Assembly: GCA_041659045.1 (NCBI GenBank)
Contig: JBAZZB010000001.1
Location: 518,234 to 582,233, forward strand
From: Patescibacteria group bacterium
GTDB taxonomy: Bacteria > Patescibacteriota > Patescibacteriia > SG8-24 > DYFX01
Direction: 5' to 3'
Length of the DNA stretch: 64,000 nt
Shown here: positions 2,634-47,843 of the stretch, piece by piece
Numbering within the stretch: the first letter of the stretch is position 1
Layout of the letters: every line of letters starts with the position of its first letter
Program-made: the position numbers and the translations under genes
Notes under the pieces: generated by a model
Seen by the model: the letters and a program-made list of their open reading frames with translations, nothing else
Databases searched by the model: none
What the model was told of the DNA's origin: nothing

Positions 2634-3911
2634 TTAGTTCAGCCAATCCTTGGATTGCCGCACAAGGAGCTCCTCAGCTCGTTCCGGTTCCGCCATCATT
2701 TCTTTAACGATTTTCTCGGTGCGAATGCCTTGCGATCCTTTGATCAAAATCAAGTCTCCAGCATGCGCTCGCTCCTGCAAAAACTGACCCGCTTCTTGCG
2801 AATTTTTGAAGTGAAACACTCGTTCATCAGCCATTCCAGCCTCTCGCGCGCCGCGACAAAGAACGGCGGAGGAAGGCCCAACACCGATCAACCACTCGAT
2901 ACCAGAGTTTGCCGCCAATTGACCCACACGGTAGTGAGCGTCTTCCGTTAGCGCGCCAAGTTCAAGCATGTCGCCAAGCACGGCAACGCGACGACCGTTG
3001 GAACGAAGTGGCAGTCGTTGAAAAGTTTTGAGAGCGAGTTCGGCCGCGCGCGGTGAAGAGTTGTAGGTGTCGTCAATCAGCATCGTGTCCTTAATACCGG
3101 GCAAGACACGCAAGCGCCCCGGCGGAGGTTGATACTCGGCGAGACCGTACGGGATGACGGCCGGATCGACATGGAATGCGAGCGCGACCGAAGCGGCCGC
3201 AAGCGCGGCGTAAACGTTACCGTCACCGAGCGCGTTTGGAAGATTCACCGGATAACGATGTCCATCAACGACCAAATCAAAGCGCGTGAAGACAGTACCG
3301 AGCGCGAGTTCCGGTTCAACGCGTTCCGCTCGCACATTCGCCCCCTCGCCAAAACCGAAGACGACCGCTCGCGGCGCGTCGGATACCAACGCCGCCACGC
3401 GCGAGTCATCACCGTTCAACACGGCAGTTCCATGTTCACGTAGCGCGCGCACGATCATGCCCTCTTCTTTTGCCACACCATCAAGATCACCAAGAAATTC
3501 CGTATGCTCCTCGGCGATGGCGGTCAACACAGAAACGTCGGGCGGCGCAATCGAGGCGAGATACTCCAAGTCGCCGGGGTGATCGGTTGCCATCTCGAGC
3601 ACCAACACGTTGGGGTACGCCTGCGTCGGACCAAAGGCAAGACGAAAACCGCGCCACAGAATCGCTGCCCACGCGAACGGAGAACGTCCTCCAGACTTTG
3701 GCTCGCCAAGAATGGTAAGCGGCACGCCGATTTCGTTGTTGTGATTTTTCACGCTCCCCCGCGTTGAAAACGAACGCGCGAGCGTCGCCGTAACGGCACG
3801 CGTTGTCGATGTTTTTCCTACCGAGCCGGCAACGGCCACAATTTTCGGCGCGTACCGCGAAAGCGTCGTACGCGCCAAAAACGCGAGAACAGCTTGAAGA
3901 TGTTTGATCAT
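2634..3911 (-). CDS. murF: UDP-N-acetylmuramoyl-tripeptide--D-alanyl-D-alanine ligase MurF
   Basis: Mur ligase P-loop AVAGSVGKTSTT and MurF-like C-terminal domain. ATG at 3909-3911, 1 nt after the ftsI stop. The longer ORF-track start (4031) would overlap ftsI and is rejected. Confidence 0.85.
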   Translation of the reverse strand: MIKHLQAVLAFLARTTLSRYAPKIVAVAGSVGKTSTTRAVTATLARSFSTRGSVKNHNNEIGVPLTILGEPKSGGRSPFAWAAILWRGFRLAFGPTQAYPNVLVLEMATDHPGDLEYLASIAPPDVSVLTAIAEEHTEFLGDLDGVAKEEGMIVRALREHGTAVLNGDDSRVAALVSDAPRAVVFGFGEGANVRAERVEPELALGTVFTRFDLVVDGHRYPVNLPNALGDGNVYAALAAASVALAFHVDPAVIPYGLAEYQPPPGRLRVLPGIKDTMLIDDTYNSSPRAAELALKTFQRLPLRSNGRRVAVLGDMLELGALTEDAHYRVGQLAANSGIEWLIGVGPSSAVLCRGAREAGMADERVFHFKNSQEAGQFLQERAHAGDLILIKGSQGIRTEKIVKEMMAEPERAEELLVRQSKDWLN

Positions 3912-3912
3912 A

Positions 3913-5616
3913 TTATTTGCGCGTCGGCGGAACCTGATAATAATCCAGCAGATACTTGGCGATGTCGCCGAAGAGCGGGGCGGCGGTCGACTCAGCGAAC
4001 TGAACGCCTTCCGGACGATCGATACGCACAACCATCACGAACTTCGGGTCGTCGACCGGTCCGAATCCGGCGAACGAACCGATCGTCTGGCCGACTTCAT
4101 ACCCACCACCATCTGCACGCGGAATCTGGGCGGTGCCGGTTTTTCCGGCAATCCAATACCCAGGGACGCCGGCACGAGTACCATGCCCCTTCTCAACGAC
4201 GGCGACAAGCATGCCCGAGAGCAGCTCTGCCGCGCGCTTCGAGATGACACTTCGAACCGTTTTGGGCGCGCGTTTCTCGACGGTGCCGTCGCCATGACGC
4301 ACCTCGTCAACAATGTAGGGTTTCATGAGTGTGCCGTCGTTGGCGATCGCGCCATAGGCCGCGGCAAGCTGCAAAACCGTGACGGTAATACCTTGGCCGA
4401 ACGAACCTGTCGCCGACCAGATATCACCCTTGCGTGATAACGGCTCAATGTTACCGGCGCCTTCGGACTGCAGTTCAATACCCGCTTTCTGACCAAAGCC
4501 AAAATCGCGCACGTAGTTCAAGAATTTCTGCGGGCCGAGCGTGTGCACGACGTCGACCATGCCTGTGTTGAGTGATTCGGCCAACACGGTCGTCATATCG
4601 ACGCGACCGTGCGCCTTCAAATCGGAGTTTCGAATGGTAAAGGGTCCGATCTTGATTTCACCCGGGTCATCAAAAATCGTCGACGGCGTTACTTTTCCAG
4701 AATCAAGGCCGCCAGCCATCGTGATCGCCTTGAAGACAGAACCGGATTCGTACGGCTCAAAAATCGCCGTATTGTTGTAGACGTCGACGTTTTCAATTTT
4801 TCCGTATTCGTTAGGGTCAAAAGTCGGGGCATTGCACATGGCGATCACCCCACCCGTGCGAGGATCAAGAATAACGACACTGCCTTTCAGCGCGTTGAAT
4901 TTCTTCACCCATTCTTCCAGTTTTTTGCAGGCGACATATTGCACCGTGCGATCGATCGTCAGCACGAGATCATCGCCATCCTTCGCGGGCTGTAGCGTAC
5001 GATTACCGACCGCGATGACGCGGCCGCGCGAATCCTTTTCGGATTCAAGATACCCCTGCTCCCCCGCAAGCTCCTTGTCGAACCAACCCTCAATACCGTA
5101 ACGCCCACTCTTTCCTTTATCACTTTCGCCGACGAAACCAAGCATCTGCCCGCCCGTCACACCCTCGGGATAAAAACGAAAATCCTCTTTCGTGAAACCA
5201 ATGCCTTCAAGTTTTAGCGCTTCAATTTTTTCGCGCGTCTCATCGTTCAATTTGCGCGAGAGCACGCGATAGCGCTCCGTAGGACTAGAAATCTTCTCTT
5301 TGAGCTCCGAAGCCTCAATGCCCAAAATCGGCGCCAGCGCCTCAGCGGTATTGATCGGATTCTTGATACGGAACGGTTCCGCAAAAAGGAGATTTAATGT
5401 GCGATTGGTCGCAAGAAGAAACGTTTGATCGCCGGACTGTCGATCGCGGGCATACACCTTCCCGCGTTCTGGAAAGAGGTGTTGAAAAAGATCGTGCTGT
5501 CCCTCAGCCAACGCGACGTAAAAATCGTGCGAGAGCACTTGAATCCGGAAAAGCTGCCCGATGAGAAGCAGCCCAACGACAAAAAAACCGATACGAAGTA
5601 GCCGCAGCCGGCTCAT
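3913..5616 (-). CDS. ftsI: Class B penicillin-binding protein (FtsI/PBP2-type D,D-transpeptidase)
   Basis: N-terminal TM helix and dimerisation domain. Transpeptidase motifs SVFK (SxxK), SLN-like and KTGTA (KTG). Immediately upstream of murF, as in dcw clusters. Confidence 0.8.
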   Translation of the reverse strand: MSRLRLLRIGFFVVGLLLIGQLFRIQVLSHDFYVALAEGQHDLFQHLFPERGKVYARDRQSGDQTFLLATNRTLNLLFAEPFRIKNPINTAEALAPILGIEASELKEKISSPTERYRVLSRKLNDETREKIEALKLEGIGFTKEDFRFYPEGVTGGQMLGFVGESDKGKSGRYGIEGWFDKELAGEQGYLESEKDSRGRVIAVGNRTLQPAKDGDDLVLTIDRTVQYVACKKLEEWVKKFNALKGSVVILDPRTGGVIAMCNAPTFDPNEYGKIENVDVYNNTAIFEPYESGSVFKAITMAGGLDSGKVTPSTIFDDPGEIKIGPFTIRNSDLKAHGRVDMTTVLAESLNTGMVDVVHTLGPQKFLNYVRDFGFGQKAGIELQSEGAGNIEPLSRKGDIWSATGSFGQGITVTVLQLAAAYGAIANDGTLMKPYIVDEVRHGDGTVEKRAPKTVRSVISKRAAELLSGMLVAVVEKGHGTRAGVPGYWIAGKTGTAQIPRADGGGYEVGQTIGSFAGFGPVDDPKFVMVVRIDRPEGVQFAESTAAPLFGDIAKYLLDYYQVPPTRK

Positions 5617-8131: not shown

Positions 8132-8206
8132 TGGTCGGAATGACAGGGATTGAACCTGCGGCCTCTCGCACCCGAAGCGAGCGCTCTACCGCTGAGCTAC
8201 ATTCCG
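8132..8206 (-). tRNA. tRNA-Pro (anticodon CGG)
   Basis: Manual fold: acceptor CGGAATG/CATTCCG, D-arm GCTC..GAGC, anticodon stem CTCGC/GCGAG with loop TTCGGGT, T-arm GCAGG-TTCAATC-CCTGT. Encoded 3' ACCA. Confidence 0.85.
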
Positions 8207-9315: not shown

Positions 9316-9369
9316 ACGGTACAGCCAGTCGGTGTGGATAATTCCAAAAGATGCGGACAGTATAGCAGA

Positions 9370-10809
9370 TCAGTTTTTCTTACGTTTCCAGGAAATCGTC
9401 TGGTACTGATCGGTCGTCAGTGGGAAGCTCGGCGGCGGGCCGTACAAAAGGTTTCCATCGTAAATAATGTTACGCGTCTGATACCCCGTACCGTCCGTGT
9501 AGGCGTAGCCGTAACGTTCGTACGTACCGAGCATGCCGTAGAGCGTAATCGTGCTTCGTACGTGGTACGGCGAGCAGCGATTCTGCATCCAGGTGGGCGG
9601 TCGGTAGTAGTAGCGGCCGATGCGGCCGTTCTGCGCGACGAGCGCCGCATCAATACGCAGATCATCCGCACTGTGCAGTCCGGCGTTGATATTATCCTGC
9701 GCAACGAGTGCAATGACATCCTGCCCGTCGTAGTTCGTGTACAACAAGTCCTCGTTCACCGTGATACTCATGCGCTGCGAAGGGTTATCCGGAAAGCGCG
9801 CTGCCGCGACCGTCACGCGGGCGGTATTGATCTGACCCTCGACCCACGTATTATCTTCAAGAAAGATAATGCCGTTATTCGGCAACGCATAGTTCGCCAA
9901 AAACGTTTGCGTGTTGATACTCCACGTGCCCCAGTCCGTCTGACCAACGACGGACGTGCAGCCGTTCGGAACAGGGACAAGCGAGTTCACGCGATAGAGA
10001 TCGAACGTATCATCGGTTTTTAAGACGACGCGATATCCAAGACTGCCGGAAGCGGCGAAATATCTGCCGTCCGCCTGCGCGTCGGTTTTCATTGTCGCCA
10101 AATTGCCGGTCAAACCCGCAAAATCAATGGCAGGTACGCCAACCGAACGACCTGCCTCAAAGACATCAAGACGCGATGGAATAGCCGTCGGAGGGAGCGG
10201 ATCGGTCGGCGTAAGATGCGTATGCACCGCGTGCTCGTCTCCTCCGGAATGATCCGCATCGTTGTAGACAACTGCGGCGCTCGTCACGGTATTGTGCGCC
10301 AAACCGTCAAAATGAATACCACCGTTCGAATGAATCGGACCGAACACTTCCGTACCTTCACCGAAACGCATCGCATCGTTAGCCACGACGCTGAACTTGG
10401 CCAAGGACGGCTTACCCATCTTTACTTCAACAATTTCCTTCACGCCCGTCGCGGCGTCAATGCGTCCCGTTGAGGTGATCGTAACGACCGTAGAGCCGGA
10501 CGGCGGAGGTACAATTTCCAGCGAAAAATTTCCAACAACGTCGCCGGAGGCGTTCTTAAACGAGTGGACGTACGGTCCGGAAACACCGGTCCCGTCTTGG
10601 TAGTCTTCCGGCGCGTGCGCGAGATGCCAACGGTAATACTCGATGCCCGCCTCCGCGACCTGCACCGCCAGCTGACGATGCTGCGACGCGCGACCGGCCT
10701 TCAACATAATGAAGGTCCACTGCACGATGCCCGTCAAAACCGCAACACCGATGCCGGTGAATACCAGCGTCTGAACCAGCGCTTGCCCAGTTGGAATGCG
10801 TCGTTTCAT
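9370..10809 (-). CDS. Pilus-associated protein with N-terminal TM helix (PilX/TadG-like minor pilin candidate)
   Basis: N-terminal hydrophobic helix after a short basic leader (MKRRIPTGQALVQTLVFTGIGVAVLTG). Large extracellular domain. 4-nt overlap with the upstream pseudopilin gene. No canonical G|FTLxE motif. Confidence 0.4.
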   Translation of the reverse strand: MKRRIPTGQALVQTLVFTGIGVAVLTGIVQWTFIMLKAGRASQHRQLAVQVAEAGIEYYRWHLAHAPEDYQDGTGVSGPYVHSFKNASGDVVGNFSLEIVPPPSGSTVVTITSTGRIDAATGVKEIVEVKMGKPSLAKFSVVANDAMRFGEGTEVFGPIHSNGGIHFDGLAHNTVTSAAVVYNDADHSGGDEHAVHTHLTPTDPLPPTAIPSRLDVFEAGRSVGVPAIDFAGLTGNLATMKTDAQADGRYFAASGSLGYRVVLKTDDTFDLYRVNSLVPVPNGCTSVVGQTDWGTWSINTQTFLANYALPNNGIIFLEDNTWVEGQINTARVTVAAARFPDNPSQRMSITVNEDLLYTNYDGQDVIALVAQDNINAGLHSADDLRIDAALVAQNGRIGRYYYRPPTWMQNRCSPYHVRSTITLYGMLGTYERYGYAYTDGTGYQTRNIIYDGNLLYGPPPSFPLTTDQYQTISWKRKKN

Positions 10810-11414
10810 TGGTTGTCTTTCAAATTGCGGAGTGAAATCTGGGTCGTCACTTCGACGGGACCTGGCGGACGACTCGCGTTTCGATCAACACCGATCACAA
10901 TCTTAATCATGCGCACCATGCTCGTGCTCACCGGAGACGGCAGCGGTGCTGTTGAAGAAGCGGTGCCCGTGTACGAGCTATCGTAGTACTGAAAGATACT
11001 CGTGGCACTCGTGACAACATTCTGTATCTGATCGATAACCGTTTCGTTCCCCGCAACGTAGGTAAACGGCGCCCCCGTCGGCTCAATGACACCCTTTTGG
11101 ATTTTGGTTCCGGAAAGGAAATATCGTACGCGCTCGACGACTCCGTCGTCGTCGATATCACTGTAAAACGTCAACGTGTTCGTTGCCGCCGTAAGGATCG
11201 GGAACGCCCCCGTTTCCGCCGGCGACGCCGATCGAAGTTCGTGCGACCAAATGCTCAAGACTTTTAGCAAATCCGCTTGAGCAGAAAGACCATCGTACGT
11301 TGTTGTGTTAAACGATAAGACGTTCTTCGCCAACGACCAGCCGCCAGTAATCACGATAACCGTGATACTGGTCGCAATGAGCGCTTCAAGCAGTGTAAAA
11401 GCTGGTCTTCGCAT
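10806..11414 (-). CDS. Prepilin-type N-terminal cleavage/methylation domain protein (pseudopilin-like)
   Basis: MRRPAFTLLEALIATSITVIVI: class III signal with FTLLE and Glu+5. ATG at 11412-11414. The upstream ORF-track extension is rejected because it overlaps the preceding gene. Confidence 0.65.
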   Translation of the reverse strand: MRRPAFTLLEALIATSITVIVITGGWSLAKNVLSFNTTTYDGLSAQADLLKVLSIWSHELRSASPAETGAFPILTAATNTLTFYSDIDDDGVVERVRYFLSGTKIQKGVIEPTGAPFTYVAGNETVIDQIQNVVTSATSIFQYYDSSYTGTASSTAPLPSPVSTSMVRMIKIVIGVDRNASRPPGPVEVTTQISLRNLKDNQ

Positions 11415-11415
11415 A

Positions 11416-13197
11416 TCAGTTTGGAAGCAGCAAAATTTCTTTTTGCTGCCAGTTGCTGTCCATGTCAACCGTCCCGACGTAATCCTGGTAACCGGCGCGC
11501 GATGCCATAACGTCATACGTGCCGGCTCCCAGGTTCGTGAACAAAACCTGACCGGGCGGCGTACAGGCCGATGTGTAGGTAAAACTTACGTCTGAGACAT
11601 TCGGCGTCGAGCTAGCATCTTCCGTAGAAAGAAACGCCTTGTACCGCATATAGCGGTTTCCGCTGTGGCTCGCGTGAATATTTGTGTTCGATGCCGCGTA
11701 ATACGTGGAAGACGTGCCGTCCGGACCGGTAAAAAGCCACGTGGCGTTGTCGTTATTGCTTGCGAGCTGAAATCTGAGGCTGTTTACGCCCGCTGCTGGA
11801 GGCTGATCGTTCGGCAACCATTGCATCTGGTAGAAGTTGCTGGTTGATCCCGTGTCAAAACTCGACGACTCAAGTTCGCCCGCGGCAACATAGCCGCTAC
11901 CCGGATCCTTCAAATGAAGGTCGCCGTTGGGATTCTGCGTCTCGAGGAAACCATCACTCGAAAAATACGCTGTCGGGTCGATAAAATCGGTTTGTCCGCT
12001 CGTACCCGACCAATCCGTCTGACGCATGAAGCCTCGGTTCGTGATGAGCGTCACGTCCGTGCCACCTTGCACCAACTGCACGGTCGTATCGGTTAACGGC
12101 AATTGCGTTGAAGCATCTTTTACGGTCACGAGCACACTGCGTGGCGCTTTCGCACTGACGATCAGCTGGAAATTTTGGTTGGTGTTCGGAGCAAGTGCGA
12201 GCGGCAGAAGCGGCACGGCACCGGCCAGATCGTAGCCAGCGTCAGTCAAAGACGCCTGATAGCTGTCCCACTCAAGCGTCGGCAGCGTCAACAATCCGGT
12301 TCCGTCCGTGGAAAAGGTGTTGGAGTACTTCAGTTGATCCGGCGTTGTGCCGTCGAGTTTTGAACCGACAAGCGAAAAATCAATGTTAGGAACCGGCGTG
12401 CAGGTATCAGTAACACTCGCAACATTCAGAGCGCTAACGCGATCAATCGCGAAACTCATCGCGGTCACCGATTGAAGCGCGACCGTTCCGTGCGGCTTGG
12501 CCGGATTCACGATCACGCTGTTTGGTGCATACGTTCGATCGGTTGAATAGCCGTCCTTCGTCACCGTCACGTAATACTGGTTGATACCCGGCGGCACGTC
12601 GACAAGCTGCAACAGGCCGGCCGCGTTGGTCACATCGTTGATCGTAAAAGACGGCGTCGCCGAGGCGTTTGTGACTGTGACGTTCGCGTCAGAAACCGGT
12701 TGCCCGTTAGCGTCAAGCGCTTGAATGAAGAGCGCGCCGTTCGTTGAAGATGTTTCAAGACTTTTCGGAGCAATCGTCGTCGTGAACGTCGTGGGAGAAT
12801 ACCCGATGCACCCATCGCAACTTACGACGAGTTCATACAGTTTGTAGTCGGCTGGTGACGTGTCGTTTGGCGAGCCTCCAAGCGTTCCATCAAAGATATC
12901 ATCAACATTACGAACCGTGCTCGTCAGTAAAAATACAATGCCGCTGCGAGTAACCGTCTGCTGATATGGGATTTTTCCAGGGGGAAGACCGCCGAGAATA
13001 CCGACGTTCACGTAGCTCATGTTTCTCGCGAATTCAAACTGTTCATTGGCCACGGCGGCGGCCATGACCTGAATGCGAGAAAGGCGTACCGCACGGTACG
13101 CGGCCGTCATCGCTTGATACAACGCCACCGTCACAAGCAAAAACACGGCCGTGCCGACGATCGTTTCAACAAGCGTAATGCCTCGGGGATGTCTCAT
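11416..13197 (-). CDS. Large prepilin-type N-terminal domain protein (593 aa pseudopilin-like)
   Basis: MRHPRGITLVETIVGTAVFLLV (G|ITLVE) followed by a long S/T/N-rich beta-rich domain. 4-nt overlap with the ATPase-like gene. Confidence 0.65.
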   Translation of the reverse strand: MRHPRGITLVETIVGTAVFLLVTVALYQAMTAAYRAVRLSRIQVMAAAVANEQFEFARNMSYVNVGILGGLPPGKIPYQQTVTRSGIVFLLTSTVRNVDDIFDGTLGGSPNDTSPADYKLYELVVSCDGCIGYSPTTFTTTIAPKSLETSSTNGALFIQALDANGQPVSDANVTVTNASATPSFTINDVTNAAGLLQLVDVPPGINQYYVTVTKDGYSTDRTYAPNSVIVNPAKPHGTVALQSVTAMSFAIDRVSALNVASVTDTCTPVPNIDFSLVGSKLDGTTPDQLKYSNTFSTDGTGLLTLPTLEWDSYQASLTDAGYDLAGAVPLLPLALAPNTNQNFQLIVSAKAPRSVLVTVKDASTQLPLTDTTVQLVQGGTDVTLITNRGFMRQTDWSGTSGQTDFIDPTAYFSSDGFLETQNPNGDLHLKDPGSGYVAAGELESSSFDTGSTSNFYQMQWLPNDQPPAAGVNSLRFQLASNNDNATWLFTGPDGTSSTYYAASNTNIHASHSGNRYMRYKAFLSTEDASSTPNVSDVSFTYTSACTPPGQVLFTNLGAGTYDVMASRAGYQDYVGTVDMDSNWQQKEILLLPN

Positions 13198-14321
13198 AGA
13201 CGCATGAGTTCTTCCGGCGCGATCGCACCGGAGAGGACCTTCCGCACCCCATCATCAAGCAGGGTTGACGGACGACGTTCGGGCACGAGCAAGTCTCTCC
13301 ATTCGAATACGGCGAGCTGTCCACGATGCCCCGTGTACCGGCAGCGGGCACATTTCGTGCCGCGCTCAAACGTTTGCGTTCTGTTCTTTTCAAACACGCG
13401 ACGCACGAGCGCGCGCGGCCAAATGACCGCCGCCTCTTCTCCTGTCATGGTATCGCGTCGACGGCAATCGGGACAGACGCGCCGCACCAAACGCTGAAGC
13501 AGCACCCCCGACAGGACGCGCGCTAGCATTTTCGGCTCAACACGCAGTTCAAGAAGCCTGTTCAAAGCGCCAGAAAGAGTTTTACCTTCAACGACAACGA
13601 TCACAAGCCGGTGTTCCGCTGCGGAAACCGCAAGAGCGGCGGACGTTTCCTCGCGCAACGAACCAAGACCAATAACGCTTGCGCCGCGCGCGATAGCCGC
13701 TCGCAGCAAAGACGAGGTTGTACGCCCAGCAACAGGGTCGACCATTTCCTGATCAACGCCATGCAGCTCGGCGAGCGACACCGTCTCAATCAGAGAGGTC
13801 TGCCTACGAAAAACATCGACTTCTTCTAAAAGCGCGTAGAGCGTCGTTGTGAGACCTGATCGTCGCGGTCCCGCGAGCAGCAGGAGTCCGGATGTTTTTT
13901 TCAAGCAACGCTCAAGCCCACCCCGTTGCACAGAGGAAAGTCCCAGATCCGCCAAACTCGGTCGTGGCGTACGGAAACGTACGACGACTTTTTCTCCTTC
14001 AAGTACCGGAACGACGGAGAGACGACTCTCCACCTCAACGCTGTCAACGACGCGTCGTAACGGATTTTCCTGGCAAGAAAAATCGGCGTCTTCGCGCAAA
14101 CGCGCGAGTATCTTCAGATGACGCACGAATCGCACGTGCGACTCCCTCGCTTGATGGAACCATTCGTGCAGCAAACCGTCGCGCCGAACACGCACGACCG
14201 CATCCTTCGCTGAAGGCTCTAAAATGAGTTCGGTGGCTCCGGAATCCGCAGCGTCACGCAAAAGCAGATCGACGGCATTGTCGATCTCAGTTTCTTTCAA
14301 AATGTGATGTGGTATCGGCAC
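13194..14321 (-). CDS. PilB/GspE-family ATPase homolog with degenerate catalytic motifs (predicted pseudo-ATPase)
   Basis: Walker A reads GPRRSGLTTTLYA (canonical GPTGSGKTTTLY); Lys to Leu, codon CTC at ~13852-13854. Asp-box and Walker B are degenerate (VIGLGSLRE instead of IMVGEIRD). Tetracysteine Zn motif CPDC...CARC is retained. N-terminal GspE N domains are absent. Confidence 0.7.
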   Translation of the reverse strand: MPIPHHILKETEIDNAVDLLLRDAADSGATELILEPSAKDAVVRVRRDGLLHEWFHQARESHVRFVRHLKILARLREDADFSCQENPLRRVVDSVEVESRLSVVPVLEGEKVVVRFRTPRPSLADLGLSSVQRGGLERCLKKTSGLLLLAGPRRSGLTTTLYALLEEVDVFRRQTSLIETVSLAELHGVDQEMVDPVAGRTTSSLLRAAIARGASVIGLGSLREETSAALAVSAAEHRLVIVVVEGKTLSGALNRLLELRVEPKMLARVLSGVLLQRLVRRVCPDCRRRDTMTGEEAAVIWPRALVRRVFEKNRTQTFERGTKCARCRYTGHRGQLAVFEWRDLLVPERRPSTLLDDGVRKVLSGAIAPEELMRL

Positions 14322-14353
14322 AGGTCCTCCTTCCCGCGCGCCCGGTTATGGGC

Positions 14354-14728
14354 TTACGGTGCTCCGATCCGTTCCGTAACTTTTTTAAGAACGTCGTCCA
14401 ACGAGTAGTTCGCCTTCACAAGGAAATCGAACGTACCGAGCGCCATTGCTTCAGCGACCTTGTCGCCGGAGCTGAGGTTGGTAAGAATGATAACCGGCAC
14501 GGGACGCAGGCGATCATCGTCTTTCATTTGCCGCAAAACGGAAATACCGTCGATCTTCGGCATAATCAGATCGAGCAAGACAAGGTCGGGCACGACGGTT
14601 TTCAAAATCGTCACCGCTTCCTCACCATCAGAAGCTGCTTGCACGTCGTATCCGCCATGCTCGAGCTTGCTCTTGAGCGCCCGCTGCATGCTCGGCTCGT
14701 CCTCGACAATCAATACAGTTTTAGCCAT
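14354..14728 (-). CDS. Single-domain response regulator (CheY-like receiver)
   Basis: LIVEDE, phospho-acceptor Asp in LLDLIMP, and conserved T (ILT) and K (LVK) motifs. ATG at 14726-14728. Confidence 0.85.
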   Translation of the reverse strand: MAKTVLIVEDEPSMQRALKSKLEHGGYDVQAASDGEEAVTILKTVVPDLVLLDLIMPKIDGISVLRQMKDDDRLRPVPVIILTNLSSGDKVAEAMALGTFDFLVKANYSLDDVLKKVTERIGAP

Positions 14729-14788: not shown

Positions 14789-15928
14789 TTAGGTGGAAGC
14801 GCGGCGCGGTAACGAGACTGTAAAGATCGATCCCCCGCCATCTGCCGGTCGATAATGTAGAGAACCATCATGAGCCGCGACAATGAACTTGGCGATAAAG
14901 AGCCCGAGCCCTGAAGCGTTCGGATTCATCTCGATTGCCCTCTTCGAGCGATAAAACCGTTCAAACAGGCGCTCTCGATCTGAAGTCGTCATGCCGATGC
15001 CGGAATCGCGGAACTCAATTTCAACAGAATCCTTCGTCGAGTGGATTTCGATGCCAACCCGTCCGCCGTCCGGTGTGTATTTCACGGCATTGTCAAGCAA
15101 TCGGATAAACACTTTTTCCATGCGCGTCGGGTCGATAAAGAGCGGCGTCAGATTTTTGGGCGGATCGAAAACTAACGTCTGCCTACGCAGAGAAACGCTG
15201 CGAGAAAAATCGCGTACAACCTTACCGACAATGGCTGATACGTCCACCGACACTTTTTCCAAACGGAACGCTTGCTGCTCGATATCAACCGCCAGAAGCA
15301 TGTCGTCAATAATCGATAAGCTGACGATGAGGCTCTTATAGGCGTCGCGCAACAACTCTGCCGCCTCCTTCGGGATCTCGCCGGCGTCACCGGAAAGCAG
15401 CACGTCCAGATTCCAACGCATGACATTCATCGGCGTGCGCAGTTGATGCGAAACGACGGTCATGAATTTTGATTTCAGTTCATCAGCGTTGCGCTGACCG
15501 CTGTAGCGAATTTTGAGCTGCATGATTTCGCGCTCGTTTGTGATATCGCGAATCACCCACAAGCGACCGAGATAGGCGCCATCCCTGTATACGGGATTAC
15601 TTTTCACCTCAAGGACCGTGCGATCAGGTGCTGTAATCTCGACATCACGCAAAAATTGCGCGTCTCTATCCTGAAAAGGATGCGTCACCGTTTCGTGATA
15701 CGACAAGATATCAGAAAACTTTACGGACCACTCCGGTTCAAAGTCCTTCAACGTACGCCCAACAAGCTTTGATGGGTCAAAACCGAACATCTCTCCGAAC
15801 GCCCGGCTCACGACCTGTAGCGTGCCGTTTTCAAGCACGAACAGACAGGCATTCGGCGTGGCATCCAAAAGCTCTGGCAGCAAATTCACGCCGCCGAGCA
15901 CCTGCGAAATGGTCGCTTTGGTTTTCAT
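14789..15928 (-). CDS. Cytoplasmic sensor histidine kinase (PAS-HisKA-HATPase_c)
   Basis: PAS-like N-terminal domain. H-box SHQLRTPMN. N, G1 (DSGIGM) and G2 (GLGLFIA) boxes. No TM segment. ATG at 15926-15928. Confidence 0.85.
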   Translation of the reverse strand: MKTKATISQVLGGVNLLPELLDATPNACLFVLENGTLQVVSRAFGEMFGFDPSKLVGRTLKDFEPEWSVKFSDILSYHETVTHPFQDRDAQFLRDVEITAPDRTVLEVKSNPVYRDGAYLGRLWVIRDITNEREIMQLKIRYSGQRNADELKSKFMTVVSHQLRTPMNVMRWNLDVLLSGDAGEIPKEAAELLRDAYKSLIVSLSIIDDMLLAVDIEQQAFRLEKVSVDVSAIVGKVVRDFSRSVSLRRQTLVFDPPKNLTPLFIDPTRMEKVFIRLLDNAVKYTPDGGRVGIEIHSTKDSVEIEFRDSGIGMTTSDRERLFERFYRSKRAIEMNPNASGLGLFIAKFIVAAHDGSLHYRPADGGGSIFTVSLPRRAST

Positions 15929-33323: not shown

Positions 33324-33397
33324 GGGGGCGTGGTGAAATGGTATCACAAGGGTCTCCAAAACCCTTGTCGTAGGTTCGATTCCTACCGCCCCTGCCA
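33324..33397 (+). tRNA. tRNA-Trp (anticodon CCA)
   Basis: Manual fold: acceptor GGGGGCG/CGCCCCT (G1-U72), anticodon stem AGGGT/ACCCT with loop CTCCAAA, T-arm GTAGG-TTCGATT-CCTAC. 3' end ...CCCCUGCCA, like E. coli tRNA-Trp. Confidence 0.85.
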
Positions 33398-36180: not shown

Positions 36181-36336
36181 TTACTTGGTCTCCTTGTGGA
36201 CCGTGTGCTTTTTGCACCACTCGCAGTGCTTCTTGAGCTCAATACGAGCCTTCAGCTTCTTCTTGTTCTTGTGGGAGTGGTAGTTGGCCCGCTTGCACTC
36301 GGTGCACTCGAGCTTGATGAGGTTGTCCTGTGGCAT
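36181..36336 (-). CDS. rpmG: 50S ribosomal protein L33
   Basis: [51 protein letters not shown]: Cys4 zinc ribbon, 51 aa. Confidence 0.9.
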
Positions 36337-36422
36337 AGCGACTGCGGTGAATGATGGGGAAAGAATACGCTTAAACCGTTCCGGCGTCAAGGGTGCTCGC
36401 CACCCGAAGCCTCGGCGACGGG

Positions 36423-36498
36423 TGGAGCCACCTCTGGGACTCGAACCCAGGACCGTCAGTTTACAAAACTGGTGCTCTACCAACTGAGCTAAGGTGGC
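36423..36498 (-). tRNA. tRNA-Thr (anticodon TGT)
   Basis: Manual fold: acceptor GCCACCT/AGGTGGC, D-arm GCTC-AGTTGGTA-GAGC, anticodon loop TTTGTAA, T-arm CTGGG-TTCGAGT-CCCAG, 3' CCA. Confidence 0.85.
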
Positions 36499-36559
36499 GC
36501 AAACTTTTGCTGGATTTTCGTGCAGGACGCAGCGCTCCACTCCCGTGAAACGCTATGCC

Positions 36560-36646
36560 CTGGTGGGCAGTCAAGGATTCGAACCTTGGAAGGCACAAGG
36601 CCAGCAGATTTACAGTCTGCCCTCGTTGACCGCTTGAGTAACTGCC
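36560..36646 (-). tRNA. tRNA-Tyr (anticodon GTA)
   Basis: Manual fold: acceptor GGGCAGT/ACTGCCC, long variable arm, anticodon stem GCAGA/TCTGC with loop CTGTAAA, T-arm CAAGG-TTCGAAT-CCTTG, 3' ACCA. Confidence 0.85.
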
Positions 36647-36647
36647 C

Positions 36648-36723
<76 letters not shown>

Positions 36724-36733
36724 CGCTGGATTT

Positions 36734-40985: not shown

Positions 40986-43900
40986 TCATGAGGCAGTTTT
41001 GAGTTCAATATCGTCAGCAATGAAGACGGGCTCTTTCTCGTGGGTGAAATCAATCTCTTTCGTGCGTGCCGCTTGGTATCCCGCGCGATCAGCCGTCAGG
41101 AAATAGCGGTTCTGACCGGCCAGGAAGGCGTAGCGTCCGCGTGCATCGGTCACCTGGGCTTCAAGCACTTTCTTGTACGCGGATTCGACAATACGAACGA
41201 CCACTTGCTTCACGGGCTTCTTCTGCTCATCGGAAACCGTTCCCCAGCTCTTAGGACGCCGCCCTCTGGCCAGGCGCATGAAGAGAAGCATGAAGGCGAG
41301 CTGTGTCATGAGTGCAATCACCTGCTCCCAACGAGGCGTTGCGGCATAGCTTGCAAGCGCAAGTCCGGGACCGATCGACGCGACGGCCCATTGCACGCGC
41401 AAGCGCGAGGAAGCCGCGAGAATGTCGATGTCCGTGCGCGTTTCACCCACAGGTTCGAGCGGCACGTTTTTGGCGATCATACCTTCCGGAGTTTCGATCG
41501 GGCCACCAAGGTGCAGGTCAGAGAAGGGGCCGTCGGCCACGCCGCTGATCGTTCGGTTCGGAGGAAAGGCAAAACCGGGCTTCTGTACTTCAAGCAGGTA
41601 GCTGCCGGGCTGTGGCAAGAAAAGATAGCGACCATACCGATCGGTGACGCGCGTTGAAACCGTTTTTTGCGTGACAGGGTCGACAAGACGGACGACAGCA
41701 AGATCCACCGGCAGCTTCGTGCCGACGTTATAGATGGTGCCGTAAGCCTTGCGACGGCGACGATCGAGCAGCGCGAGCGGTTGCGTAAAGAGGAACATCG
41801 CGTATCGCGCGTAGCCGGCAAAGCCCACAGCCGAAGTCGTCGCGACTGCGACCGCCGCAGTTGTAGCTGGGGTCACGACAACGTCGTTCGTTGTTTGCGC
41901 CACTGCGCTTCCGCGAATGGCTTTCATATTGTCGCGTACCGATCGCGCGATAGCGCCGATGACAGGCGTGTTCTGTGTCGCCTCCGCGAGACGATCAAGA
42001 ATCGGCGTTGCCGTAACGGCGTTCAATGGTCGCGCGATCCATTCAAGCAACGTCAGTCTTGTCTCTGTTCCGCTCGTCGTCCCGCTTCCAGACGTCGGTA
42101 CCGTTGGCGGTGTCGTTCCGGTCGTCGGACGTTCGGGATCGGTTCCGACAGGTGTCGGTTGCTCGGTTGTCGGTGGCACCGTAGGCTCTGACGATACTGG
42201 AGGTGCCGGTGTCGTTCCTGGTGTGGGGGCTGTACTTGGCTCAACAGGTGCCGTCGGCTGAGCAACTACCGGAGGAACGGTCGGTACCGTCGGTGGCAGC
42301 GTAACGATCGGTTCCACAGGCGTTACGGGAAGTTGTACAACATCCGTCGTCTGTTCAGAAATCGTCGTCGAGAGCCCATCCGCGGTGATGACGGCGCGAT
42401 TAAAAAGCGACCTCGCGCCGGGTAACACCCGCACGTGCACGCTGACATACCGGCGCATGCTTGCGGCAAGAGAACCAAGATTGTATGTCGCGGTACGCGT
42501 CAACGAATCAAAAGCGGCGTCATCTGTATCGGCGAGGTCCGTCAGAATCACACCATCAATCGACAAAGATGATCCAACGTATGACGTGCCGGGTGGAATT
42601 GTTTCTGCTACCACAACATTTCGCGCGGTCTGGCCGCCGACGTTCGACACGTCAATACGATAGGTAACGATATCACCAGTCTTCGGTTCGGGCGTACCGC
42701 TCGAAAATTCCAAAGAAGACACGTTCACGCCGACGCGCACCTCAGCCAGTACAGCAGCATCCTCTGGCACAGTCGTAGGGGGTACAACGGGCGGCGTCGA
42801 TGTTGTTGAGCCCGGCGCTCCTGATCCGCTTTGCGCTATTGTGAACGAAGCATCGCTCACGTCCGTCGCCAAAATCGTGTCACCTCCAGCGAGGGCTTCA
42901 GCGCGAATGCGCGCGGAATCAGCGGCCACGCTCGGCACCATCCAGGCGTAGACGCCCGCGGAAGGACTCACATTCGAAGCAATCACCGCGTACGTACTCC
43001 CGTTATCTACGGAGTACGAGAGTCGGACGTTCTGCACCTGAATACCCTGCGTCGTGAAAAATACGTTATATGTCGATCCACCCGCGAGCAGTTCGCTGCC
43101 GTTCGGCTGGCCAACCACAATGGAAGGCGTCGGGTTACCACCGCCTCCGCCTCCTCCCCCACCACCTCCGCCTGAAGCCGTAATCGAAAAGTCTGCGTTC
43201 GCGGTATCGCTCGCAAGTGTTACGTTGTTCGCGTCTTGTGCCTCGATTTTGATGCGCGCTGTGGTCGTCGTGATGTTGTTGACCGTCCAGGAATACGGCG
43301 ATGCTGCGTCGGATGCAGTAACAAGCGTCGGGAACGTGGAGCCCGAGTCCGTAGAAAGCGTGATGCGGTAGTGATCAACCAAACCAGCATTCGTCCACGT
43401 GATCGACGAAGAATCGCCGCCCGTCAAACTTCCTCCGCCATTCGGTGCCGTCACGGTTACTGTCGCCGCACCGTCAGAATCGGCGATCATTTGCACGCGT
43501 GTTTGTGAAACCGTGTTGACGGACTGGAAAGCCGTCACAATACCAGCGTCACCATTGGAGACAGCCGTCGGAATATCTTCAGCAAAACCGGCGCGAGCCG
43601 CAACAACGATTCCGTTTGCGGTCCACATCGCCGTGCCAGTTGAGTTCAGACGTTGTGCGTACACGTCGCCACCAGCCTCCGTTCTTTCATCCTTCCAAGC
43701 CGCTACAACACCGGCGCTATTGTCTGTTGCAATACTGAATTGCGCCCCTTGGTTATCAGCAGCATTGCTCACGACCTCGCCGTTCGCTGTCCACTGCGCG
43801 ACGCCGGAAGCATCGAGTCGTTGCGCGTACAGATCGCTCGTGACGCCTCCGCGCATATCTTTCCACACCACGATCGACCCGGTATCCGAAGCGATGACTT

Positions 43901-46277
43901 TCGGCACGGTTTGATTATCTGCTGCAGTCACAACATCAACTCCGCCCGCAGTCCATTGCACGTCGCCGGCTTCGTTATACATTTGTGCCTTGACGTTGGC
44001 GTTTCCAAGACTGCCGGGATCCGCGCTCCAGGCGACGACGACTCCGCCCGAGACGGCCGTAAGAGCTGTTTCGATGGCGGTGTTTTCTGTCGTGATGACT
44101 TCGCCGTACGTTGTCCAACCGGAAACAACCGCTCCGTTTGCCGCTGCTAGGCGCACGACGCGTAAGTCGGGATCGGTCACGTCGTTATCGATGTGCTGCC
44201 AAGCGAGATACGCGCCGCTTGCGCCGTCAGAAGCGATCGCGCCATATTCATGAGCGACCGTACCGGAAGGCAGCGGATCAGATGCTTCAACTCCTGTTGC
44301 GCCCCACGGAACACCGGCCGCAGATGTCACGCGCACGCCATACATCCTGTTATTCACCTCATACATCACAATGGCGCCACCCGCTCCGTCCGTGACGGTA
44401 CCCCAGACATCGACCGTCGAGCCGGACGGTGAAATACTCAATCCTGATGCCGACCAGCCGCCGACCACGACCCCCGAAGAATCAAAACGTTTGATTTTCA
44501 AAACCTCGGAACCCATATAATCCTTCCAGATGACGTATACGCCACCTGAACCATCGCCTAACAAGCCAAGCACCTCTTGCCCGATACCGATCGCAATCGC
44601 CACGCCGCTCGCTGTCCACTGTGAGACACCTGAGGAGTTCACTTTTTGCAAAAAAACTCTCGTTCCGTTATGGCGGTTATCATTCCAAGCAAGAAAATAA
44701 TTTCCTGAACCATCGGCCGCCACGCGCGGCACGAGCTGCTCTGCCGTAACGGAGCCTGGTCCATCTGGAAGCGTGAAGCCGCGCGTACCGTTAAATTGCG
44801 GAGCGCCAGTCGCGTCATCAAGTAACTGGCCAACCGCGTCATCCTCAAAGCTCGCTTGGATCTGTGCCGCAATCACGAAGTCGCCTGCCGTTGTCGTGAC
44901 AGCATACGGCATCGTAATCGGGAAAAAGTTCGTGGCCGTATCCGCATCAATCGCGAGCACGCCACCGGACGTCCAAGCCACGGTACCGTCAGAATTGACG
45001 CGCTGGGCAATCACGTCGCGTGTGCTTGCACCCGAATATTGGCGCATAATGGCGATGAGCACGTCACCCGAACCATCACCCGCCGTCACCGCGATCGTAG
45101 GATAATCTTCACGATCGGCAGTACTCGTCAGCGCCAAACCAGAGCCGGAAAACTGGGCGACACCAGAGCTATTGAGTTTTTGTACGTACAAATACGGGTT
45201 GGCGTAGTAGAAGACCATCGCGTCGGTTCCACTCATCGCAACCTTGGGATTTGCATTGGCGTTTGCCGTGCTGACCTGGACACCATTCGCAGTCCAAACC
45301 TGGTCACCGGCACTATCGATCTGTTGGGCGTAAACACCGTTAGCGCCTGAACGACTATCTTCCCAAACCGCGACAAGGCCTCCGGAACCGTCCGGTACGG
45401 CCTGCGTCATGCGATCCTGTGCGTCGGCAGCCGACGTGATTGCTTTTCCGTTCGCTGTCCACTGCACCGTACCAGCGCTGTTAATACGTTGCGCGTATAA
45501 ATCTTCATCCGCGCCGCGGAGATCCTCCCACGCGATGATCGCGCCGCCGGAGCCGTCCGTAACGATGAGCGGATCGCGCTGGTTATTGGCGGCCGCGCTA
45601 ATGACCACACCGGTCGCAGTCCACTGTTTGGCGCCTAAACCATCCAAGCGCTGCGCGCGCACGTCGCCGCCGATCACGTACGCAACGATAATACCGTCGG
45701 AGCCGTCAGGAAGAGCGACCCCTGACGTTTCGGAACTCGCGCCAACATCAGCAACCGCCAACCCGCCCGCCGCCCATTGCACGGCGCCGGAAGAATCGAG
45801 TCTTTGCGCGTAAATGTCGTTGGCACCATTCGAAATACCGTAGAGCACAATGACGCCGCCTGAGGTATCTGCGACTACTCGCACGCGCTGATCACCGAGA
45901 CCACTTGCTCCATCGTAGACCGTGATGCCTCCGCCCCATTGCGCCGCGCCGGTGTCATCAACTTTTTGAGCGTAGATGCCGCCCCCGACCGCGTTCGTGA
46001 ACACGAAGACGCTATACCCATCGCTCGTGCGAACGACAGGGCCACTGGTTGATTGTTCAAAAATAACTGACTCTTGGTCGCCCGCAAGGAAACCGTTTGT
46101 GGCAGCAGCAGCAACAACACCGTTTGCCGTCCAACTTGCAGAGCCGCTCGCCAAAGCCGTTGAGACAACGTTACCGAAAACAATCGCCGTGATCAGAACC
46201 GTCACGGACGCAAAAACAAACCGAGCGCGCGCCCAAGCTTTTACCGCAATCCAAAGACGGTTTATTCGATACTTCAC
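40986..46277 (-). CDS. Giant cell-surface protein A (~1760 aa)
   Basis: Architecture from N- to C-terminus: signal peptide; ~13 tandem ~50-aa W/YAQR beta-propeller-like repeats; DUF11-like domain; two ~90-aa Ig-like (Kre9/KNH-like) domains; Gly12 tract; Pro/Thr-rich linker; C-terminal TM plus prealbumin/CarboxypepD_reg-like anchor module shared with gene B. Start uncertain (GTG ~46277); the ORF-track start at 46556 would overlap the upstream gene. Confidence 0.7.
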   Translation of the reverse strand: MKYRINRLWIAVKAWARARFVFASVTVLITAIVFGNVVSTALASGSASWTANGVVAAAATNGFLAGDQESVIFEQSTSGPVVRTSDGYSVFVFTNAVGGGIYAQKVDDTGAAQWGGGITVYDGASGLGDQRVRVVADTSGGVIVLYGISNGANDIYAQRLDSSGAVQWAAGGLAVADVGASSETSGVALPDGSDGIIVAYVIGGDVRAQRLDGLGAKQWTATGVVISAAANNQRDPLIVTDGSGGAIIAWEDLRGADEDLYAQRINSAGTVQWTANGKAITSAADAQDRMTQAVPDGSGGLVAVWEDSRSGANGVYAQQIDSAGDQVWTANGVQVSTANANANPKVAMSGTDAMVFYYANPYLYVQKLNSSGVAQFSGSGLALTSTADREDYPTIAVTAGDGSGDVLIAIMRQYSGASTRDVIAQRVNSDGTVAWTSGGVLAIDADTATNFFPITMPYAVTTTAGDFVIAAQIQASFEDDAVGQLLDDATGAPQFNGTRGFTLPDGPGSVTAEQLVPRVAADGSGNYFLAWNDNRHNGTRVFLQKVNSSGVSQWTASGVAIAIGIGQEVLGLLGDGSGGVYVIWKDYMGSEVLKIKRFDSSGVVVGGWSASGLSISPSGSTVDVWGTVTDGAGGAIVMYEVNNRMYGVRVTSAAGVPWGATGVEASDPLPSGTVAHEYGAIASDGASGAYLAWQHIDNDVTDPDLRVVRLAAANGAVVSGWTTYGEVITTENTAIETALTAVSGGVVVAWSADPGSLGNANVKAQMYNEAGDVQWTAGGVDVVTAADNQTVPKVIASDTGSIVVWKDMRGGVTSDLYAQRLDASGVAQWTANGEVVSNAADNQGAQFSIATDNSAGVVAAWKDERTEAGGDVYAQRLNSTGTAMWTANGIVVAARAGFAEDIPTAVSNGDAGIVTAFQSVNTVSQTRVQMIADSDGAATVTVTAPNGGGSLTGGDSSSITWTNAGLVDHYRITLSTDSGSTFPTLVTASDAASPYSWTVNNITTTTARIKIEAQDANNVTLASDTANADFSITASGGGGGGGGGGGGNPTPSIVVGQPNGSELLAGGSTYNVFFTTQGIQVQNVRLSYSVDNGSTYAVIASNVSPSAGVYAWMVPSVAADSARIRAEALAGGDTILATDVSDASFTIAQSGSGAPGSTTSTPPVVPPTTVPEDAAVLAEVRVGVNVSSLEFSSGTPEPKTGDIVTYRIDVSNVGGQTARNVVVAETIPPGTSYVGSSLSIDGVILTDLADTDDAAFDSLTRTATYNLGSLAASMRRYVSVHVRVLPGARSLFNRAVITADGLSTTISEQTTDVVQLPVTPVEPIVTLPPTVPTVPPVVAQPTAPVEPSTAPTPGTTPAPPVSSEPTVPPTTEQPTPVGTDPERPTTGTTPPTVPTSGSGTTSGTETRLTLLEWIARPLNAVTATPILDRLAEATQNTPVIGAIARSVRDNMKAIRGSAVAQTTNDVVVTPATTAAVAVATTSAVGFAGYARYAMFLFTQPLALLDRRRRKAYGTIYNVGTKLPVDLAVVRLVDPVTQKTVSTRVTDRYGRYLFLPQPGSYLLEVQKPGFAFPPNRTISGVADGPFSDLHLGGPIETPEGMIAKNVPLEPVGETRTDIDILAASSRLRVQWAVASIGPGLALASYAATPRWEQVIALMTQLAFMLLFMRLARGRRPKSWGTVSDEQKKPVKQVVVRIVESAYKKVLEAQVTDARGRYAFLAGQNRYFLTADRAGYQAARTKEIDFTHEKEPVFIADDIELKTAS
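43137..43172 (-). repeat. GGN trinucleotide tract encoding 12 consecutive Gly
   Basis: Protein GGGGGGGGGGGG between an Ig-like domain and the next domain; DNA is imperfect GGN repeats. Confidence 0.7.
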
Positions 46278-46347
46278 GCGTGTATACAGAGGTCTCTTCA
46301 CAGCATGCAGTGTACCACTTTTAGGCAAATCCTTCTTGTTCGAACCT

Positions 46348-47823: not shown

Positions 47824-47843
47824 ACTGTCACTTACGTCCGTTG

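Follow-up and report, generated by a model that had tools for sequence, protein, structure and literature searches.

A catalytically degenerate PilB/GspE homolog adjoining a histidine kinase and a stand-alone response regulator in a small clade of Patescibacteria

Motors of the PilB family are usually treated as obligatory ATPases, with regulation assigned to separate components, that is PilZ, FimX, CheY-like proteins and cyclic di-GMP (c-di-GMP) acting at MshEN. Here we analysed a stretch of 64,000 nt from a Patescibacteria group bacterium (contig JBAZZB010000001.1, positions 518,234 to 582,233; hereafter the window, numbered from its first letter), which encodes at 13194..14321 (-) a 375-aa protein of the PilB/GspE family in which the motifs of the nucleotide site are degenerate. 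This protein and its orthologs are referred to below as dPilB. In our literature searches, which cover the searchable literature only, no description of a natural degenerate PilB/GspE pseudo-ATPase was found. The analysis supports in essence the view that dPilB is a clade-specific, selected and catalytically dead descendant of a PilB linked to histidine kinase (HK) and response regulator (RR) genes, and that it is not primarily part of the pseudopilin genes that follow it.

Among the described systems, dPilB resembles PilB, PilF and GspE (EpsE) in its match to PF00437, the fold made of N2D and the C-terminal domain (CTD), the tetracysteine, the Arg-x-Arg of N2D, a QRLxRR segment and descent at the level of the locus, and it differs from them by the lost motifs, the missing MshEN/GSPII, a deletion of ~19 residues and the lack of an adjacent PilC. 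ComGA of Firmicutes is also short, having N2D and CTD only, and likewise heads a short run of pilin-like genes (here with a ComZ-like competence-type pilin), but it has canonical Walker A and B motifs, is active and is followed by ComGB, a PilC homolog, whereas dPilB reaches 104 bits against the 300 required for ComGA and has no PilC/ComGB homolog downstream. For motors deprived of catalysis, it is known that the Walker A mutant K327A of M. xanthus PilB still signals exopolysaccharide (EPS) production (PMC11656802) and that an ATPase-dead PilT is still functional together with PilU (PMC11656802). In both cases a non-catalytic body still informs or supports function, as we propose for dPilB, except that these are laboratory point mutants of active motors, whereas dPilB has lost several motifs in nature, the loss is fixed in a clade, and its locus no longer contains the machine genes. 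A stand-alone receiver encoded with a pilus motor, and having protein contact as its output, is likewise found in the PixG/PixH/PixE-PilB1 system of Synechocystis, where CheY-like regulators bind PilB1 (PMC11181946), and in PilG/PilH of P. aeruginosa. There the target PilB is an active motor, whereas the 'motor' next to the receiver in our locus is dead, and a simple PAS-HK is found in place of a CheA-type kinase. FimX, with its GGDEF/EAL domains, is also a degenerate catalytic domain kept for binding or scaffolding in type IV pilus control, but its fold and chemistry are unrelated and it has been characterised experimentally, whereas dPilB is known from sequence. Patescibacteria generally possess conserved pilus machinery, often in several loci, pilin-only loci included (PMC6744442, PMC12206443).

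Fold, nucleotide site and conservation of dPilB

The protein matches Pfam PF00437 (T2SSE) with 146.5 bits against a cut-off of 24.9 (E-value 1.1e-42), and the match covers residues 12-341. The NCBIfam equivalog models are not reached, the scores being 3-6 times under the cut-offs (172.6 against 630.25 for GspE, TIGR02533; 145.3 against 675.65 for PilB, TIGR02538; and 104.4 against 300 for ComGA, NF041000). No MshEN match was obtained with Pfam. The protein begins at N2D, the ~170-residue MshEN/GSPII region being gone, and an alignment with canonical PilB/GspE shows ~19 residues deleted near the C-terminus. The gene starts with GTG, 32 nt past the stop of the response-regulator gene, and the DNA in front reads GAAGGAGGA, a Shine-Dalgarno-like sequence at 14325..14333 (-). 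The N-terminus MPIPHHILKE is common to the dPilB orthologs, and because they share it, the absence of MshEN/GSPII is taken to be real. An AlphaFold2 model was obtained with a pLDDT of 93.4 and a pTM of 0.87, and with Foldseek it aligned to the N2D+CTD cores of PilF (5oiu/5it5), PilB (5tsh) and EpsE with TM scores of 0.83-0.86 and an E-value of 1e-35, while phmmer against the PDB sequences matched dPilB to EpsE (1p9r, 3.6e-38). The bilobed fold of N2D and RecA-like CTD typical of the GspE/PilB/PilT superfamily is thus predicted for dPilB. This agrees with a preliminary description of the same DNA, made from the sequence, in which the protein was taken for a GspE/PilB homolog without the N-terminal domains.

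The nucleotide site has been altered in every motif. In the Walker A remnant GPRRSGLT (residues 151-158, 13848..13871 (-)) the DNA reads GGA CCG CGA CGA TCA GGT CTC ACA, which does not fit the canonical GxxGxGK[ST]; the position of the catalytic Lys is occupied by Leu157 (CTC at 13853-13851) and the second, middle Gly of the P-loop by Arg154. Across all 13 family sequences the Lys position holds L, V, R or C, Lys being present in 0 of 13, and the Gly154 position holds R, C, H or A. A sequencing error at the CTC codon is ruled out, as none of the 12 orthologs has Lys. On alignment with canonical PilBs, the Asp box (IEDPxEY) is represented by LIETVSLAE at 13767..13793 (-), with the first Glu alone retained, and the Walker B motif (DIIMVGEIRD) by SVIGLGSLRE at 13650..13679 (-), where the catalytic Glu is changed to Ser221 and the family shows S, A, T or G. 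The His box, canonically TGHLVLSTLHTN, reads EHRLVIVVVEGK at 13581..13616 (-), its second His being replaced by Glu245 (EHRLVIVVVEG as against TGHLVxSTLHT), and the CTD residue Arg335, conserved in canonical PilBs, is replaced as well. The zinc motif CPDC...CARC is retained, and its two CxxC elements (C283-C286 at 13464..13475 (-), seen in alignment and DNA, and C324-C327 at 13341..13352 (-), seen in alignment) have cysteines that are invariant in 19 of 19 aligned sequences. When the 97 positions conserved in at least 85% of canonical PilBs were considered, 48 differed in the dPilB family, including all nucleotide-site motifs and Arg335, and 49 were kept, including the zinc site, the QRLxRR segment and the N2D residues Arg44 and Arg46, which are invariant. 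The preliminary description had already claimed the Lys to Leu change, the degenerate Asp box and Walker B and the preserved zinc motif, all of which stand, and the His box can now be added to the degenerate elements. The sequence thus supports dPilB being a catalytically gutted PilB/GspE homolog that is probably unable to hydrolyse ATP and probably unable to bind it.

Walker A motifs devoid of Lys were also seen in other PilB-like proteins (P0251, P0255, P0347, P0375, P0201 and P0334, with GPADSGRTS, GRVGSGTST, GPRDSGRTS or GRAGHGTTT), and some of the Lys-less proteins are otherwise full-length PilBs of 564-567 aa with GPTGSGTTT. The degeneration of PilB may therefore have happened more than once. 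Among the best dPilB matches there are also proteins of ~1000 aa with two T2SSE stretches, that is tandem double PilB-like proteins (P0241-P0250, P0252, P0254, P0256 and P0203).

A search of 5.8 billion proteins, grouped into clusters of 90% identity, gave the window protein and 12 other clusters of ~375 aa with 53-85% identity, the next match after these orthologs being a canonical 564-aa PilB with 37% identity. When 1.84 billion representatives were searched exhaustively with HMMER, one further distant member (P0240, 44%) was obtained, and one extra ortholog (L023) came from scanning, with the family alignment, a metagenome collection in which the contig of the window and its closest relatives are absent. 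Only 6 of 185,579 GTDB species representatives carry the gene, and all are metagenome-assembled genomes (MAGs) of Patescibacteria/Minisyncoccota, the complete genome CP129476.1 included. The reading frame is intact in the 13 clusters and in L045, a locus whose member is at 44% identity, and no member has a frameshift or stop; 79 of 375 positions are invariant over 12 aligned members, the conserved N-terminus among them. For the closer pairs, at dS of 0.7-1.0, the dN/dS of dPilB is 0.11-0.14 with bootstrap 95% limits of 0.08-0.19, and the purifying selection is even along the gene, the corresponding values being about 0.02-0.07 for HK, RR and the pilins (0.03-0.07 for HK). A pseudogene is ruled out by the intact frames in all members and by these dN/dS values, whose upper limit does not exceed 0.19. 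The gene is therefore conserved and intact, as had been proposed, with 12 orthologs and a dN/dS of ~0.12, and neither of the two findings that would have told against it, an encoded Lys or a pseudogene, was obtained. It may be noted that the deposited call of the ortholog in CP129476.1 (P0012, 342 aa, about 9899-11029 in L001/L012) starts too late, since residues 1-374 of the 375 in the query align in tblastn, placing the start 34 codons upstream of the called one.

Signalling neighbours and descent of the gene

Directly upstream of dPilB, on the same strand, lie the genes of a cytoplasmic 379-aa HK with the Pfam domains PAS, HisKA and HATPase_c (14789..15928 (-)) and of a stand-alone CheY-like receiver of 124 aa without an output domain (14354..14728 (-), Response_reg, 3.4e-26). 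The claim that dPilB is the head of an operon is accordingly not upheld. The acidic pocket, Asp53, Thr81 and Lys103 of the RR look canonical on reading the sequence. The HK has 65-97% identity to its orthologs with synteny unchanged and lies upstream of dPilB in every orthologous locus; the RR has 85-98% identity to its orthologs and 79% to RR1 of the canonical locus L002. An apparent split of the HK in one locus (L009, 3480-3500 in tblastn) is due to a stretch of N in the assembly, and the frameshift that it suggested is ruled out. As far as the contigs reach, the orthologous loci share the gene order TPR, PBP1, phosphodiesterase, Smr, DUF6938, GH-like, HK, RR and dPilB, and an RNase_H_2-like gene followed by MgsA is found at the 3' end of the block; Smr is not called in L045. 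HK, RR and dPilB are present together in all loci examined.

The same neighbourhood gives the origin of the gene. The nearest canonical PilB (P0014, 37% identity), which has MshEN and all the motifs, lies behind the same GH-like (61%), HK (55%) and RR (79%) genes, and after this PilB come the genes of PilC, of four pilin-like proteins, among them one with 1397 aa, of a PilM of 698 aa and of two pilins. Two intermediate loci were found. In L046 the order is HK-RR-RR, a 437-aa PilB with the Walker A sequence GPADSGRTS and a degenerate His box, PilM and the RNase H-like gene, and in L045 it is HK-RR-RR, a 330-aa dPilB (GPRASGL, the Asp box being still canonical) and the RNase H-like gene. From the synteny with P0014 and these intermediates it follows that dPilB is not, as the preliminary description had it, simply a paralog at the head of a pseudopilin operon, but the positional descendant of the HK-RR-linked PilB, and that the operon was dismantled stepwise. 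Within this small clade of Patescibacteria the operon has lost PilC, PilM and its own pilins, and the ATPase has lost MshEN and every catalytic motif, whereas its fold, zinc site and position within the HK-RR transcription unit have been retained.

Which neighbours have stayed with dPilB was seen from the loci in which the three genes downstream of it, here called the cassette, are missing. In a neighbour-joining tree of concatenated HK, RR, dPilB and GH sequences with 200 bootstraps, the cassette-less loci L008, L009 and L010 each fall beside or inside cassette-bearing lineages with 98-100% bootstrap support, and both outgroups, L045 and L046, are without the cassette. These nested positions imply that the cassette has been lost at least three times with dPilB retained. 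Relative-rate tests revealed no acceleration of dPilB in two of the three cassette-less lineages, and for the L044/L008 pair, of which one has the cassette and the other does not, the dN/dS of dPilB is 0.136. The adjacent pilins are thus dispensable for the retention of dPilB, and as the cassette is absent in nested lineages and HK and RR are invariant, the constant partners of dPilB are the HK and the RR and not the pilins. It is therefore more likely that the pseudo-enzyme is tied to signalling than to the adjacent pilins.

The downstream cassette and the rest of the window

The first gene of the cassette (pil593, 11416..13197 (-)) encodes a prepilin-type protein (MRHPRG|ITLVE in the motif scan; Pfam N_methyl) with Ig-like CarboxypepD_reg domains, and its start overlaps the dPilB stop as ATGA. 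It is followed after a 1-nt gap (TGA t ATG) by pil202 (10806..11414 (-)), a small prepilin-type protein (MRRPA|FTLLE; Pfam and motif scan) for which the start at 11414 was adopted instead of the longest-ORF start, the calls in orthologs being of 202 aa. The third gene, p479 (9370..10809 (-)), overlaps pil202 by ATGA and, judging from its homologs and its model, encodes a large protein like a minor pilin, in which a hydrophobic helix at the N-terminus is combined with a beta-solenoid and which has Gln and not Glu at +5. Clear class-III signal peptides were found by the motif scan in two window proteins only, pil593 (RG|ITLVE) and pil202 (PA|FTLLE). Of the earlier statement that dPilB is coupled by 4-nt overlaps to three prepilin-type proteins, the overlaps hold for dPilB/pil593 and pil202/p479 and fail at pil593/pil202, and the prepilin type holds for pil593 and pil202, p479 being pilin-like only, with a model that matches the pilin ComZ. 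This AlphaFold2 model has a pLDDT of 75, and its sole strong match in the PDB is ComZ (6qvi, Foldseek E-value 1.4e-9), a competence-associated pilin of Thermus thermophilus proposed as a tip DNA receptor (PMC6561018). The cassette may therefore be the tip complex of a DNA-uptake pilus of these bacteria.

The cassette is found in other surroundings too. At least 3948 homologs of p479 with ~60% identity occur across Parcubacteria, and in Zambryskibacteria (L047/L048, 4597-11479) a trio of proteins, p594, p202 and p492, matches the window proteins with 45%, 40% and 62% identity, respectively, pil593 aligning to p594 over its full length and pil202 to the p202 of L047. A canonical PilB of its own (583 aa, MshEN+T2SSE) and a PilC precede this trio, and ComEC is found 6 kb downstream; a reverse-transcriptase gene (RVT_1, 3438-4457) lies immediately upstream of that PilB-PilC-cassette module. 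The identity of dPilB to the Zambryskibacteria cassette PilB is 26%, as against 37% to the HK-RR-linked PilB, which makes the window operon chimeric. Pairing dPilB and the pilins as one system, as had been done at first, is thus not supported, the trio being a separate module that normally goes with its own active PilB-PilC. We also considered the pilins as relics of the same ancestral operon and rejected this, since pil593 is similar to the 1397-aa protein encoded at the canonical locus in its C-terminus only. The picture of a single relic operon was given up for the chimeric one on the grounds of the full-length cassette orthologs behind another PilB-PilC and of the two identity values above.

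The 3' boundary of the unit is marked by a conserved promoter-like element of the next gene (RNase_H_2-like), GCTATACTGT...TTATCCACA at 9316..9369 (-), which is also present in L008, L009, L010, L044 and L045. It comes directly after the dPilB stop in the cassette-less loci L009 and L045 and after a short spacer in L008 and L010, the spacer of L008 being ~230 nt long with a terminator-like hairpin. Promoter and terminator scans gave nothing above the shuffled background by which the transcription unit could be defined.

For other pilus machinery, 44 ORFs of the window (the response regulator and those likely genes that encode 150 aa or more) were scanned with Pfam, and no T2SSE besides that of dPilB, no T2SSF, no PilM_2 and no Peptidase_A24 was found among them, a sub-threshold PilM_2 match on MreB aside. 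When PilB, PilC and PilM from related loci were used as tblastn queries against the 64-kb window, nothing further came up. The earlier statement that PilC, PilD and another PilB-type ATPase are missing from the 64 kb is borne out by the Pfam scan of these 44 ORFs and, as to PilB and PilC, by tblastn as well. Within 10 kb of dPilB (less at contig ends) there is no T2SSF in any of the 17 family loci examined. A search with P0014 for a second PilB in the same genomes returned none among the best 120 matches, which reach down only to ~50% identity and in which cluster representatives hide members.

Elsewhere in the window, giant ORFs of 1856 aa (DUF11) and 1656 aa (no Pfam match) flank a 491-aa CarboxypepD_reg/SdrD_B Ig-like protein at 40986-52814 (-), and large surface proteins are probably encoded there. 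The window also has five tRNA genes (Pro-CGG, Trp-CCA, Thr-TGT, Tyr-GTA and Thr-GGT) at 8132-8206, 33324-33397 and 36423-36724, the last three being clustered at 36423-36724, and the first of this cluster is overlapped by an ORF (36181-36540) whose C-terminal part looks by eye like an L33-like ribosomal protein.

Possible role and its meaning for the family

The constant adjacency of HK and RR together with the destroyed ATP site suggests that an enzyme has become a regulator without catalytic activity, and not that the gene is broken. The regulatory or scaffold pseudo-enzyme of the preliminary description is thereby kept as far as a dead, conserved and selected protein is concerned, and is modified in its tie to the pilins, since the HK and RR are the constant neighbours. 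We consider it an evenly balanced proposition that dPilB, without catalysis, is the output or adaptor of the HK-RR pair and acts on a hypothetical pilus machine encoded elsewhere, a reading supported by the precedents of Synechocystis, M. xanthus PilB and PilT/PilU. The phosphorylated stand-alone receiver would bind the body of the dead dPilB, which would dock on, compete for or co-assemble with the machine of a pilus or competence pilus whose genes lie elsewhere, and dPilB would thus gate pilus extension without supplying energy. The most plausible target would be the machine that assembles the ComZ-like minor-pilin cassette, which in some lineages is co-transcribed with dPilB. A more specific version, which we put forward only tentatively, is that the phosphorylated RR may bind a dead dPilB ring, which may block or poison the docking site of PilC or form mixed hexamers, so that pilus extension and DNA uptake of the episymbiont would be switched in this way and not by transcription or c-di-GMP.

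Several points weigh against an adaptor role. The target machine is hypothetical and the contact between RR and dPilB is proposed from genomics. The family is tiny, as its six species representatives in GTDB show. The gene is the fastest-evolving of its neighbourhood, its dN being 3-4 times as high as in HK, RR and the pilins, which is in keeping with loose constraint on its role, and acceleration of dPilB is seen in the cassette-less L010. Also, the loci were found through the ATPase itself, and lineages that have HK and RR and have lost dPilB would be missed (ascertainment bias).

The alternative that stands next is that dPilB serves, without catalysis, as an assembly factor or chaperone dedicated to the three minor pilins co-transcribed with it (a ComZ-like tip complex), which it would pass to a platform powered by another ATPase. 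The ATGA coupling of dPilB and pil593, the same arrangement in 9 cassette-bearing loci and the strong constraint on the cassette (dN/dS 0.03-0.05) are in its favour, but the cassette is gone from three nested lineages in which dPilB is intact and constrained, in the outgroups L045 and L046 a degenerate PilB occurs and the cassette does not, and other Parcubacteria run the cassette behind a canonical PilB-PilC with no dead ATPase. We therefore regard such a role as unlikely. Slightly less likely still is that dPilB binds or hydrolyses nucleotide through a non-canonical site, for example with the conserved P-loop Arg153 in place of Lys, and acts as a slow switch or motor. The P-loop Arg occurs in all members (GPRRSG or GPSRSG), and G151, G156, T158-T160, the Asp-box E179 and the N2D arginines are retained, but the Lys position drifts among L, V, R and C and the Gly154 position among R, C, H and A, and the catalytic Glu, both Asp-box acidic/Pro residues, the second His of the His box and Arg335 have been lost together. 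We know of no precedent for this in the superfamily, which we count against it.

That dPilB is a slowly eroding, functionless relic of a dismantled operon, preserved by polar or translational-coupling effects on its neighbours, would agree with the stepwise erosion of the operon across lineages, with an evolutionary rate above that of every neighbour and with the very narrow distribution, but is highly improbable given a dN/dS far below 1 in several independent pairs (0.11-0.14), the lack of frameshifts and stops in any member down to 44% identity, the 79 of 375 positions invariant over 12 aligned members and the retention of dPilB where nothing is coupled downstream (L005/L008, L009, L010 and L045).

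Should the more specific version, with its dead dPilB ring, hold true, dPilB would be without a described precedent as a natural pseudo-ATPase regulator in the type IV filament superfamily, within the limits of a small family, uncultured ultra-small hosts and a mechanism drawn from genomics only. In annotation, these proteins carry a risk of being misread, since JGI and NCBI records give them the label 'GspE/PilB ATPase'. The analysis also brings out a very widespread and strongly conserved Parcubacterial PilB-PilC-ComZ-like cassette, which may be a DNA-uptake pilus. For the PilB family, the dPilB lineage is a natural experiment on which surfaces of PilB matter beyond catalysis, 49 of the 97 conserved positions having been kept, and likewise on the way in which reduced genomes take a pilus operon apart in successive steps.

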